Source: an uncultured Actinomycetes bacterium
Lineage (GTDB): Bacteria > Actinomycetota > Thermoleophilia > RBG-16-64-13
Assembly (NCBI GenBank): GCA_963706025.1
Contig: CAVPLM010000005.1
Location: 544,001 to 608,000 of the forward strand
Length of the DNA: 64,000 bases
Direction: 5' to 3'
Of the stretch, positions 41,986 to 57,181 are shown in pieces. The translations under genes were made by a program, and so were the position numbers. The notes under the pieces are model-generated. The model was not told the DNA's origin. It ran no database searches and saw only the letters and a list, made by a program, of their open reading frames with translations. The first letter of the stretch is position 1. The number at the start of each line of letters is the position of its first letter.

Positions 41986-42108
41986 GCCGCGGCGCGTGGC
42001 GAGGGGCACCGTCCGATACGCCGACTGAGGTCTGGTCGCAAGCCACGTAGCGGGTGACGCATGGTTCGTTGCCAAACCGTTGCCAAGAAAGACCCCGACT
42101 CTGCCGTC

Positions 42109-42354
42109 TCACAGCCCACCGGGATTCGACGGGTACTTTGGGCCGTTCCCTTTCGACTTGTCTCCCTCCCAGCGGCGGGTGACTTCGGTGCCCCAATCAA
42201 GGAGTGCCCATCCCCCGACGAATAGCGCAGCGGCGATGGCGAGGGTGATGTATTTGGACGTGAAGCTGCTCTCAATAACGTAGTGCGCGATGGCGACGCC
42301 CGCGCCGACGAGTAGGAGGACTGCCCCAACTATGGTTGCGACGACCTTCCGCAT
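42109..42354 (-). CDS. Small two-TM membrane protein
   Basis: GAAGGAG RBS and two hydrophobic segments. Confidence 0.5.
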   Translation of the reverse strand: MRKVVATIVGAVLLLVGAGVAIAHYVIESSFTSKYITLAIAAALFVGGWALLDWGTEVTRRWEGDKSKGNGPKYPSNPGGL

Positions 42355-42473
42355 CCCTTCTCCTTCATCCCCCTCGATGACGATGGTATCGGCGCTGGTC
42401 CTAGAGACGGAATCCAAGCCACCCGCGCACCTGCAACTTCTCCACTATAGGACATGTGGCGAGAACAAAGCAG

Positions 42474-42541
42474 AAGCCCCCGCCGGCCGAGCTTGGGCAG
42501 TAATACAGAAGCTCCGATCTTCCGATATCAGGGGTAGGAAG
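42474..42541 (+). repeat. Hairpin-family left block with sigma28-like promoter (copy A)
   Basis: About 70 bp similar to 45024-45090. Contains TAAT-N16-TCCGATAT. Confidence 0.75.
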
Positions 42542-42553
42542 AAGGAGGACATC

Positions 42554-42760
42554 ATGCGAGGCTGTCACGACTGCAAGTATGGCCCACTCCGCCTTGACAA
42601 AGAGTTTCAGTGCGACAGAGAGAGATTGACGCTTCCAGACCCATCCGAATGGTGTTCGATGGATCCTAGTTGTATGAACTGGCAACCCATGTCGGTAGAT
42701 GACCCCAGGCGGGTCAAGTCGTACCAGGAAGTCCTCTGCGGCACAAAGATGTCGCCCTGA
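42554..42760 (+). CDS. Small Cys-rich hypothetical protein (68 aa)
   Basis: AGGAGG RBS. CHDC...C...C..C pattern. Confidence 0.6.
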   Translation: MRGCHDCKYGPLRLDKEFQCDRERLTLPDPSEWCSMDPSCMNWQPMSVDDPRRVKSYQEVLCGTKMSP

Positions 42761-42787
42761 CGTCAGCTCGCAGAGCCTGAAAGGAGA

Positions 42788-42828
42788 AAGCGCCCGCGCC
42801 GGCCAAGCGTTGACGCTACCGATCGGGC
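42788..42828 (+). repeat. Hairpin-family copy B
   Basis: GCCGGCCAAGCGTTGACGCTACCGATCGGG, similar to 44841 and 45404. Confidence 0.7.
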
Positions 42829-42932
42829 AGAACCACATAAATGAACGGAGGCCCCGAAGAACCTCCGCTTCTAGCGTCCACGTCTATCACGTCAGGTCAT
42901 GGGCCATCTTCGCTGCGGAAAGACGGTACCCT

Positions 42933-44666
42933 CTAGTCCTGCAAGACGCGGGTGGGTATGTGACGGTCGGTGGTGGTGCCGTCCCCGAGCTGGCCGGAAC
43001 TGTTCCATCCCCAGGCCCACCAGGAGCCGTTCTCCCTCAGGCCGAGGGAGTGACGCCAACCGCCGGCAGCAACCGCCTTCCAGTCGGTGCCCGTGCCGAT
43101 ACGGGTGGGCTTGTGACGGTCGGTGGTGCTGCCGTCTCCGAGCTGGCCGTAGTAGTTCCAACCCCAGGTCCACAGGGAGCCATTCTCTTTCAGAGCGAGG
43201 GATTGGTGCTCGCCGCTCCCAACGGCCTTCCAGTCGGTGTCCGTGCCGATGCGGGCGGGAAGGTGGCGTTCGGTGGTGCTGCCGTCGCCCACTTGCCCTT
43301 CGCTATTCCGTCCCCAAGCCCACAGGGAGCCGTCGGTCTTCAGAGCGAGGCAGTGGAAATTGGCAACAAAGGCCTTCCAGTCGGTGTCCGTGCCGATGCG
43401 GGTGGGAAGGTGGCGGTCGGTGGTGCTGCCGTCACCCAGTTGGCCCTCACGATTGTCTCCCCAGGCCCACAGGGAGCCGTCGGTCTTCAGGGCTACGCAG
43501 TGCCATACACCGGCGGAAACGGCCTTCCAGTCGGTGTCGGTGCCGATGCGGGTGGGAAGGTGGCGGTCGGTGGTGCTGCCGTCACCGAGTTGGCCGAGGT
43601 GGTTCCGACCCCAGGCCCACAGGGAGCCGTCCTCTTTCAGAGCGACAGAGTGCCACTCTCCGGCAGCAACGGCCTTCCAGTCGGTGTCAGTGCCCGATGC
43701 GGGTAGGAAGGCGGAGGTCGGTGGTGCGTGCCGTCACCCAGTTGGCCGTAGCGGTTATCTCCCCAAGCCCACAGGGAGCCGTCACTCTTGATGGCCAGAG
43801 AGTGGTACCAACCGGCGGCAACGCCCCTCCAGTCGGTGTCCGTCCCGATGCGGGTGGCAAGGTGGCGGTCGGTGGTGCTGCCGTCTCCGACTTGGCCGTC
43901 ACGATTGTCTCCCCAGGCCCACAAGGAGCCATCGGTCTGGAGAGCCAGGGAGTGGGACCCGGCAGTGGCGAGGAGGTTTGTGGGGTCCGTGGGCGGAGGG
44001 CCTTCCAGAGCTTTCAACAGGTTCCAGAGCATCTGGGCGCATTCGCCCCGGGTGGCAGACTGGAGTCCGTCCCATGAGGGAGAGAGACCCTCCAGACCCT
44101 CCAGCAGGCTGTTGAATTCCGCCTTGCGAATATTGGCGCCGTGGGTGGCATCAGAATACGTAAAGGACACCCGCCCAGGCGTCGGTGGGATTCTCCAGCT
44201 TTGATCCACCGGCTCTCACAACCATGGTTATGACCTGTTGCCGGGTGATCTGGTTGTAGGGCCGGAAGGTGTTGTCCAGATAGCCCGTGGTGAGACCGGT
44301 TCGTGCGGCGACGGCGATGTAGTGGTCGGGGTAGAGCGGATCGACGGAATCGACGGGTAGGACATCGTTGAAGGGGCAGATGTCGTCTTCCGTGGTCTGG
44401 AAGCCCATGGTCAGAACGATCATCTTGGCAAACTGCTGACGCTTGACCAGATCCTCCGGTCCGAAGTTGCCGTTGGTGTATCCGCCGATGACGCCCTGCG
44501 TGGCCATGCCCTCGATGGCTTCGTAGTACGGGTGGGAAGCAGGGACATCGGGGAAGGAAGCCTTAGCAGCAGTGGGCAGGGCAAGAATGAAGCCTACACC
44601 GAGCAAGAGCACGATTAGGGCTGTTCGCAGTCTGAGCGGCGACACGTGGCTTGGCGTGGCTCTCAT
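42933..44666 (-). CDS. Secreted SLH plus RCC1/BLIP-II beta-propeller protein, with two frameshifts
   Basis: Signal peptide and SLH (FPDV..HPY..AI, GNFGP..RQQFAKM), then about seven 50-aa GSLWAWG.N..GQLGDG repeats. Frame breaks near 44163 and 43695-43730. Confidence 0.85.
42940..43960. repeat. Tandem ~150-bp coding repeats (RCC1 blades)
   Basis: GGCCTTCCAGTCGGTGTC recurs at 43224, 43371, 43521 and 43671, with variants on either side. Confidence 0.9.
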
Positions 44667-44840
44667 GGAACACGCACCTCCTCCTCGGGCAGGATCGATG
44701 CCCGCACGGGGCGATGACCGAGTGTCAGCTCTTGCGAAGCCCCGTCTCCAAGGTTTCCCCGAGCTATGAATGGGGGAAGTTCCTCGCTCCCCGTACAGGT
44801 TCAGTATAGGCCGGTTCTACTCTGGGTCAATACGAGGAGA

Positions 44841-44885
44841 CAAGCCCCCGCCGGCCAAGGCTAAACGCTACCGATCGGGGGCTTG
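44841..44885 (+). repeat. Hairpin-family copy C
   Basis: CAAGCCCCCG-CCGGCCAAGGCTAAACGCTACCGAT-CGGGGGCTTG. Confidence 0.75.
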
Positions 44886-45023
44886 CCTTAATGGTAGGCG
44901 CGGCGATACGACGGGGCTATGGGACTCTGGCTGCAAAACAAGAAAGGCCCCGGGGACGCCGTCCAGCCAGAGCCTTCTGCTCACACAATCGGCAGCCACG
45001 AGTCAGTTCATTAGCAAATAGGA

Positions 45024-45090
45024 AAGCCCCCGCCGACCGAGCTTGGCGGGTAACACAGAAGGTTTGATCTTCCGATACTGAAGGTAGAAG
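45024..45090 (+). repeat. Hairpin-family left block with sigma28-like promoter (copy D)
   Basis: AAGCCCCCGCCGACCGAGCTTGG...TAAC-N16-TCCGATAC...GGTAGAAG. Confidence 0.75.
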
Positions 45091-45141
45091 GATCGAACGG
45101 GGCATGCGTGCCGATACAAGCACAACGGCAAAGGGCCTGAG

Positions 45142-45402
45142 ATGGACACTTCCGAGAAGGTGCGCGAAAACAGAGCGCGACGTACGGCCGCCCTGCAGGG
45201 CCTCGCCCTACGCAAGTCACGCCGACGCGATTCCCATGCCCTCGACTACGGGGGCTACTGGTTGATCGAAGGGGAGGCCAATGCTGTGGTCGTTGGGGAC
45301 CTTTGGGGCATGAGCCTCGATGACGTGGAAGGCTGGCTCAAGCGCGATAGACAGCAGGTTCCGATCGTCCGCTTCATACCGTCTACGTGCTCGCTCCGCT
45401 GA
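45142..45402 (+). CDS. Small hypothetical protein, possibly phage-like
   Basis: ENRARR.A..QGL.LRKSRRRD..ALDYGGYWLI...SLDDVEGWL. Resemblance to phage small proteins is recalled, not searched. Confidence 0.55.
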   Translation: MDTSEKVRENRARRTAALQGLALRKSRRRDSHALDYGGYWLIEGEANAVVVGDLWGMSLDDVEGWLKRDRQQVPIVRFIPSTCSLR

Positions 45403-45403
45403 G

Positions 45404-45441
45404 AGCCCCCAGCGGCCGAGCGTGAACGCTACCATAGGGGC
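45404..45441 (+). repeat. Hairpin-family copy H
   Basis: AGCCCCCAGCGGCCGAGCGTGAACGCTACCATAGGGGC, immediately after the ORF stop. Confidence 0.7.
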
Positions 45442-45736
45442 GTGTCCTCACGGTAGTCGCGATCGTGCGTGGTAGCGTGCTGACTTGTGTGCAGAAGCTC
45501 TTCGAGGAAGGACTGAAGAAGAGGTCATTGTATGCACGTGATGCCAAGTCACCCCTACGAGAGGGAGCACACCATTACCCAGAGGAAGTCTAGAGCGTTC
45601 GCTCCCCCTCGACTGCCGTCCGGTCGCGGCACGAAGCCCGAAGGGGTCTCTTGGGAGCTGACAAGACTCGCCGCAGGGGCTCTACGCCGACTACAATTCA
45701 AATGAGGAGGATCTCCGAGAATAGGGAGGGAGAGCA

Positions 45737-57083: not shown

Positions 57084-57124
57084 AAGCCCCCGTCGGCCGA
57101 GCTTGGTAGCTACCGGCGGGGGCT
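57084..57124 (+). repeat. Hairpin-family copy E (complete form)
   Basis: AAGCCCCCGTCGG-CCGAGCTTGGTAGCTA-CCGGCGGGGGCT. Confidence 0.75.
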
Positions 57125-57181
57125 CTAACGCCGCCCAATGTCACGGAAGTCCGGGATGTCAACCCCGCGGTCCTTGCAAGA

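Follow-up and report, generated by a model that had tools for sequence, protein, structure and literature searches.

A ~45-nt GC-rich imperfect palindrome lies between gene units in a 64,000-nt stretch of an uncultured actinomycete genome (G000:C5:544001-608000; the whole stretch is referred to as the window), and stretches of homology shared by related loci and species repeatedly have an end within this hairpin, so gene units really are shuffled there. With a probability of roughly 0.55, we regard the hairpins as genus-specific terminators or insulators that act as recombination linkers between gene units. The original prediction described two micro-cassettes in the window, each composed of a left block of ~70 bp, a small open reading frame (ORF) and a right-end hairpin. 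Unit 1 carries a 68-aa Cys-rich ORF and unit 2 an 86-aa ORF, and both left blocks were seen as the 5' half of a full hairpin at 57084. Small genes were proposed to be exchanged between hairpin copies, together with a portable promoter, by an integron-like or REP-like system. The left blocks, the right-end hairpins and the full hairpin are all present where they had been placed, far above chance (0/100 shuffles). The proposed exchange at hairpins is borne out insofar as hairpins bound units that differ between loci, but no hairpin marks the right-hand junction of left block 2.

The source genome, G000, is a metagenome-assembled genome (MAG) of 3.66 Mb in 30 contigs, with 64% G+C, 92% completeness and 7.3% contamination; contigs named below without a genome belong to it. 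The genes of the window are chromosomal, judging from the gene content. Three sister genomes also carry the hairpin (G001, G002 and G003), giving four genomes of the genus.

Comparison of the window with contig C11 revealed two such boundaries. C11 has the order small membrane gene, full hairpin, CHRD-like lipoprotein gene and left block, whereas the window is devoid of the hairpin and lipoprotein unit, and its junction relative to C11 falls in the 21 nt common to the two hairpin halves. The window's own CHRD-like homologue is located 15 kb away, behind a decayed hairpin. In addition, the window possesses an extra 2-kb unit between the hairpins at 42790 and 44843, made up of a frameshifted SLH-RCC1 gene with its promoter and leader, plus a second terminator hairpin. 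At the other end of the window, the segment 57085-57734 matches G003:C2 at 96%, with homology setting in precisely at the hairpin's first base; the neighbouring gene on the left of 57084 maps to G003:C1 and G001:C6, with no hairpin after it there. Moreover, the hairpin together with an excisionase-like helix-turn-helix (HTH) gene sits behind an 86-aa gene in G001 and behind a secreted-protein promoter in G000. Relatives thus differ by indels and replacements whose ends fall in the hairpin motif.

Assembled metagenome contigs, placed at 90% likeness, were used as hints only; they may derive from paralogs or relatives, and the best-matching run may be the source sample. They bridge the small membrane gene, left block 1 and the Cys-rich ORF (runs X1 and X3), as well as left block 2 into the 86-aa ORF (runs X1, X2 and X3), in agreement with the junctions of the window. 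A joint from 42767 to 44878 in run X1 gives a C11-like arrangement and could represent a paralog. One contig of run X4 (depth 8.4) joins 41996 to 45664, a hint that the whole cluster of small membrane gene, unit 1, SLH gene and unit 2 is missing or replaced in some population; no hairpin was found at either border (41996, 45664) of this 3.7-kb variable stretch. One X4 contig departs from the window left of 42470. A flank-pairing test based on a loose regular expression was discarded: its 58 matches were mostly false positives, and a count of 31 against 34 expected gave no signal.

The window is laid out as follows.

42109..42417, minus strand: small membrane-protein gene of 102 aa (ORF), the unit left of unit 1; its upstream region abuts the hairpin 5' half
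42474..42496, plus strand: hairpin 5' half and start of left block 1; profile match limited to model positions 2-25
42497..42553, plus strand: left-block core 1, putative promoter and ribosome-binding site of the Cys-rich gene; conserved in 4 copies from 3 species
42554..42760, plus strand: 68-aa Cys-rich ORF (cargo of unit 1), a conserved small protein; Cys conserved in 8 sequences
42790..42828, plus strand: decayed hairpin at the right end of unit 1; -17.4 kcal/mol, z -1.3
42844..42869, minus strand: second, unrelated hairpin with T-rich tail, terminator-like (terminator scan), 3' of the SLH-RCC1 gene
42933..44666, minus strand: SLH and RCC1-repeat surface-protein gene in at least three frames (ORF pieces; Pfam SLH and RCC1)
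44667..44831, minus strand: predicted promoter TTGACC-16-TATACT with a long 5' leader (promoter scan)
44843..44885, plus strand: full hairpin, ~12 nt from the -35 of the minus-strand promoter; -25.3 kcal/mol, z -3.1
45024..45046, plus strand: hairpin 5' half and start of left block 2 (motif and profile match); a full hairpin occupies the orthologous G002 site
45047..45090, plus strand: left-block core copy 2, closest to the G003 version of the Cys-gene leader by sequence comparison
45142..45402, plus strand: 86-aa ORF (cargo of unit 2), member of a widespread family of ~70-90 aa; 87 homologues
45404..45441, plus strand: decayed hairpin beginning 1 nt past the stop codon of the 86-aa ORF; -16.5 kcal/mol, z -0.35
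57084..57126, plus strand: best-preserved hairpin, 53 nt beyond the stop codon of a minus-strand gene; -31.7 kcal/mol, z -4.1

The left motif occurs at 42476, 45026 and 57086, giving three matches against 0.02 expected, a number reached in none of 100 shuffles. The right motif occurs at 42801 and 45414 and, with three mismatches allowed, also at 44853 and 57095, making four matches against 0.08 expected (again 0/100 shuffles). The hairpins listed in the original prediction are confirmed, but the full hairpin at 44843-44885 between the two units had been missed, and the right-end hairpins, although present, are decayed compared to intact copies, which reach -25 to -32 kcal/mol (z -2.6 to -5.2). 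The 102-aa membrane protein gave only weak Pfam matches below the cut-off; its homologues are followed by a hairpin at C11:105945-106255, and also in G001 and G003.

Profile search with nhmmer, using a model built from 12 copies and read at E <= 10, yielded 28 matches in G000: 15 clear full copies, two weak or short ones, seven of the 5' half only and a doubtful remainder. The working copy number is ~24; the copies are dispersed over at least seven contigs, concentrated in a few variable islands and unevenly spaced. Paired contigs, such as C1/C8 (also C9, C12/C13 and C29), give identical BLAST and motif matches in this genome bin, and contig comparison showed that C1 repeats part of C8. This redundancy and the 7.3% contamination suggest strain heterogeneity or co-binned relatives.

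The hairpin adopts a three-tier fold, with an outer GCCCCC/GGGGGC stem that often runs into the flanks, a 3-bp middle stem and a 4-bp inner stem closed by a tetraloop. RNAalifold analysis of 24 copies from five genomes found compensatory changes in two of the seven pairs recovered; the input was ungapped and many 3' arms were out of register, which limits the recovery to seven pairs and understates the structure. In several copies the purine-rich 5' flank covaries with the 3' flank, as read off the alignment. Moreover, the loop and internal-loop sequences are conserved across ~24 sites in four species.

A pattern for the 5' half matched 21 times in G000, 16 in G001, eight in G003 and six in G002, compared to 0, 1, 1 and 1 matches, respectively, of the reversed-pattern control; the other 57 of the 61 genomes gave 0-7 matches each, with controls of 0-5. 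The hairpin is therefore a low-copy family largely confined to one genus, with few copies in related genera. Rfam found nothing in the window at gathering thresholds and nothing at E <= 1 in 42400-45500, and around 57084 it gave only three chance-level matches (E 0.09-0.86). Viral contigs contained eight single matches to the 5'-half pattern and no full hairpin, and a phage origin of the hairpin was rejected on this ground.

The 3' arm has been lost and the 5' half retained in at least seven copies of G000 and in several of G001 and G003. Their break points range from the loop apex to ~12 nt past it, a spread that argues against base-precise cleavage. A search for 3' halves alone is powerless in the GC-rich G000 (361 matches), so the apparent excess of 5' halves may partly be a detection effect.

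Of 12 local clusters in G000, G001 and G003, 11 are uniform in hairpin orientation, regardless of how the intervening genes run, and the twelfth has one weak opposite match (E 0.49). The arrays in the window, on C11, at 678-690 kb of C5 and on G001:C8 are each co-oriented throughout (5/5). Along contig C5, the cumulative GC skew peaks near 340 kb, and the 11 copies at 586-690 kb point the opposite way to the two at 92-94 kb. Altogether, 23 of the 24 copies in G000 have their top strand on the strand of negative local skew, including all 20 copies at sites of |skew| > 0.005; these 20 fall in only four independent regions.

How the hairpins might act can be read from their structure and position. 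On the minus strand, an intact copy reads as a strong stem-loop followed by a partly T-rich tail; 13 of the 24 copies in G000 lie, by our reading, within ~220 nt of a stop codon they could serve, and at least five have their 5' side 5-15 nt from the -35 of a predicted minus-strand TTGACN-16/17-TATACT promoter. From the stem-loop, the tail and the nearness to stop codons and promoters, we infer that the hairpins are terminators or insulators between units. As the only sequence common to otherwise unrelated neighbours, they would also serve as short homology for ordinary recombination. Exchange between hairpins would then proceed by homologous recombination with no dedicated enzyme, and broken hairpins would be repaired by end joining; a Ku gene is present in G000, so end joining is available to create half copies. 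In this manner, whole units of promoter, gene and hairpin could be inserted, deleted and re-ordered, and the two micro-cassettes would be two such units, with the left block headed by a hairpin remnant. If so, composite boundary motifs of terminator and promoter are not peculiar to T4-type phages but also shape variable islands of cell-surface and small genes in a bacterial chromosome, and they would allow small genes of unknown function to be swapped, with their own expression signals, between loci and species in a simple, enzyme-free manner.

Several points weigh against the linker interpretation. In the generic terminator scan, no more than partial stems of two copies were picked up, and the number of terminator-like sites was four, compared to 3.1 in shuffles. 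The remaining 11 of the 24 copies adjoin no stop codon by our reading, and a plain terminator needs no conserved loop or internal-loop sequence. Homologous exchange between full hairpins alone cannot yield half copies. A passive linker also does not obviously predict the co-orientation of arrays, nor that orientation changes over with the GC-skew arm. Either directional terminators of leading-strand transcription or a strand-selective recombination mechanism would account for both features. If the hairpins are indeed linkers, the co-orientation and the flip with the replication arm need explaining, and this is the likeliest place for something new. In addition, some paralogs in G000 may be contigs of a co-binned strain, which would alter the copy counting but leave the boundary pattern unchanged.

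Contamination and the visible redundancy of contigs also fit a plainer account, in which a terminator is inherited along with duplicated gene families or strain contigs, the mosaic reflects ordinary divergence and rearrangement, and the hairpin plays no causal part. Many copies do adjoin the same few families (SLH proteins, the 86-aa family and the small membrane protein), and BLAST blocks necessarily end at the last conserved element. However, the same hairpin borders unrelated genes, encoding Cys-rich, 86-aa, CHRD-like, HTH, SRPBCC-like, SLH and lipoprotein products; break points coincide with hairpins in comparisons with three other species, and units retain their hairpins while the neighbours change. 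We consider this account unlikely.

Alternatively, the hairpins could be sites of a dedicated recombination system, whose enzyme, other than an integron integrase, would act on folded single-stranded hairpins and thereby insert or excise cassettes. Arrays of up to five co-oriented hairpins enclosing short units would suit such a system; the agreement with the sign of the local GC skew in all 20 clear-skew copies recalls how attC sites fold selectively on one strand, truncation near the loop apex is seen in several independent copies, and unit 1 is a discrete 350-bp module in four contexts. Nevertheless, the half-copy break points scatter over ~12 nt instead of falling on one base, the skew-consistent copies amount to only four independent regions, and the units lie in both orientations, each with its own promoter-like sequences. 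Furthermore, no recombinase was found in or beside any array examined, except an integrase fragment 330 nt from the hairpin at C5:678192; the integron integrase of G000 is truncated and was not found in any of the three sister genomes, and no Y1 transposase was found. A dedicated enzyme of this kind is very unlikely. Likewise very unlikely is a more specific form, an undescribed cassette system of uncultured actinomycetes that dispenses with an integron integrase, with arrays directional on the replication-exposed strand, cleavage near the loop apex and cassettes bearing their own promoters.

The integron-like part of the original prediction is not supported. The sole match in G000 above the TIGR02249 integron-integrase cut-off (C3:452293-452937; 319.6 versus 265 bits) belongs to a truncated gene (C3:452263-452940) whose match is confined to model positions 101-315; in place of its N-terminus is a 37-nt segment that duplicates sequence 4 kb upstream. 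Contig C3 has no hairpin copy detectable by nhmmer. Among the 25 genomes searched, IntI was found in four (G000, G005, G006 and G008) and in none of the three other genomes of the genus that carry the hairpin, and the IntI-positive G005, G006 and G008 have 0-1 hairpin-pattern matches. The distribution of IntI hence does not track that of the hairpin. An attC site ends in an inverse core RYYYAAC and a core GTTRRRY. By contrast, the aligned hairpins begin with GCCCCC and end with GGGGGC, and no GTT or AAC core was found in the 24 aligned copies. Both systems share co-oriented imperfect palindromes that separate short, mostly unknown ORFs, with an orientation tied to the replication strand, but the hairpin arrays differ from integrons in that they have no core sites at the hairpin ends, no attI or Pc and no adjacent intI, and in that their units point both ways with their own promoters. 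The ORFs neighbouring the C3 integrase are presumably DarT-like, HEPN-like and MazF/PemK-like.

Eight tyrosine-recombinase matches were found in G000. A C-terminal fragment of a tyrosine recombinase at C5:677452-677865 is the one that lies 330 nt from the hairpin at C5:678192, and excisionase-like HTH genes are located between hairpins at C7:4335-4898 and C5:679332-679607, one of them in tandem duplicate. This part of C5 may be a decayed integrated element.

Another explanation holds that the hairpin itself is a small mobile repeat, similar to a REP or MITE, which spreads intergenically and leaves the genes between copies as bystanders. A GC-rich imperfect palindrome that is intergenic, spread over at least seven contigs and restricted to one genus with few copies in related genera has this appearance, as have the covarying purine-rich 5' and 3' flanks of several copies. 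Its number, however, is only ~24, clustered in few variable islands, and PF01797 (Y1/RAYT transposase) has no match in the 92%-complete G000, compared to matches in six of 14 control genomes. No orthologous intergenic region was found that differs by a lone hairpin; the copy at 57084 moves together with the gene block beside it. Nor were terminal inverted repeats or target duplications noted at hairpin copies. Spread of the repeat by itself is accordingly quite improbable, and the REP-like system of the original prediction, which would call for a Y1/RAYT gene, is not supported. REP and BIME elements with their RAYT transposases (PMC3184786) are likewise GC-rich intergenic imperfect palindromes, and they can be terminators or stabilisers as well as recombination hot spots. 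They differ from the hairpin in reaching hundreds of copies per genome, in their RAYT gene and in their inverted pairs, whereas neighbouring hairpins are co-oriented.

For the linker interpretation, the closest analogue appears to be the promoter-early stem-loop (PeSL) motif of T4-type phages. As described by Arbiol et al. 2010 (PMC2839356) and Comeau et al. 2014 (PMC4122927), PeSL motifs flank small ORFs and mediate modular shuffling by homologous recombination. Both motifs are short and conserved and border small genes of unknown function within plastic regions, and in both cases indels and replacements that distinguish relatives have their ends in the motif; the phage exchange is ascribed to homologous recombination. 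PeSL motifs join a terminator stem-loop to a promoter, and the hairpin may do likewise, given its strong fold and the sigma-70-like promoters predicted near at least five copies. Despite these similarities, the hairpin sits in the chromosome of an actinomycete MAG instead of the hyperplastic region of a T4-type phage, the promoter is not a fixed part of the repeat, and the arrays are co-oriented and follow the replication arm. The hairpin also resembles intrinsic terminators of high-GC Gram-positives, in which U-tracts are often weak or absent, in having a strong GC-rich stem-loop just past stop codons and a partial T-tract on one strand. It differs from them in the conserved loop and internal-loop sequence over ~24 sites in four species, and in that many copies do not follow a gene.

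Unit 1 is conserved as a whole, from the hairpin 5' half to the end of the right hairpin, in four copies, with 90% identity in C11, 92% in G001 and 84% in G003. The left flanks of all four copies are unrelated; on the right, three copies share ~25 nt past the hairpin and then diverge. The Cys-rich protein keeps its cysteine positions in eight sequences and has four database homologues, and no Pfam or PHROG family matched it. The two left blocks of the window are 85% identical over 54 nt (42474-42527 versus 45024-45077). They do correspond to the 5' half of the hairpin, but the cut after CTTGG that had been proposed is approximate, as ~8 more hairpin-like bases follow (GGCAG-TA). Neither left block folds significantly (z +1.3 and -1.1), and the idea that they are RNA structures was rejected on these values.

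A search of the genus for the left block, which the original prediction had called for, recovered the left-block core (TAAYACAGAAG...GATCTTCCGATA) only five times in the four genomes, with a difference in cargo in a single case. Four of the five cores precede the Cys-rich gene (in the window, at C11:106970, in G001:C8 and in G003:C2), and the fifth is that of unit 2. The core ends in a strong ribosome-binding site and has a -10-like GATATC (GATACT in unit 2), features from which we infer that it natively serves the Cys-rich gene as promoter and leader; it was not among the promoters called by the sigma-70 scan. The portable promoter of the original prediction is accordingly plausible as a promoter and ribosome-binding site that moved once, but otherwise it is tied to the Cys-rich gene.

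Both ORFs of the original prediction exist, and the 68-aa and 86-aa products have no detectable similarity. For the 86-aa protein, 87 homologues were found, to none of which a Pfam family is assigned, and their alignment has 11 invariant columns, KSRRRD among them. The 86-aa ORF itself matched neither Pfam nor PHROG, and its AlphaFold model (pLDDT 82) gave no fold match in the PDB at E <= 0.001. Six other copies of the gene were compared, among them three in G000 (C11, C14 and C25) and two in G001. In each, a full hairpin stands ~95-140 nt upstream and a promoter-like region of the copy's own comes after it; in five of the six, the downstream sequence differs and no hairpin lies at the stop codon, with one ~80 nt further on in the G001:C8 copy.

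In the window copy, by contrast, everything upstream of ~45100-45120 is replaced by a left block resembling the Cys-gene leader of G003. The left junction of unit 2 falls within the hairpin 5' half; no hairpin is present at the right one. The upstream flank of unit 2 has an ortholog in G002 that matches up to 45046 and then continues into a full hairpin, the second terminator hairpin and unrelated DNA. The left block would thus have been placed before the 86-aa gene in a single copying event, with a crossover in the hairpin 5' half on one side and a non-homologous junction near 45090-45120 on the other. Since the block was seen only once before this gene and the other copies differ upstream, the two instances of the same frame with unrelated cargo, real as they are, amount to one promoter-region transfer.

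The second hairpin motif (ACGGAGGCCCCGAAG..CCTCCGT, with a T-rich tail) often lies a few bases past the main hairpin, as in the window, at C11:107330, at C5:684889, and in G002 and G003. The SLH-RCC1 gene next to it has single-base insertions near 43690-43730, within a ~150-nt repeat, and is either a pseudogene or split by an assembly error in the tandem repeat. Its predicted promoter and leader at 44657-44831 have at least nine other related copies in G000, at 75-83% identity, which precede different secreted or surface-protein genes and in places adjoin hairpins; this ~175-nt segment is a portable expression module in its own right.

Two further stretches were noted around unit 2 and its G002 counterpart. 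On G002:C116 (L019), ~90 nt beyond the hairpin and past the terminator, a segment resembles the reverse complement of the T-arm and acceptor end of a tRNA, and may be a tRNA gene or the remnant of an attachment site. The intergenic region 45471-45588, 3' of unit 2, recurs with 77-91% conservation at one place in G003 and two in G001, none of them near an ortholog of the flanking genes.

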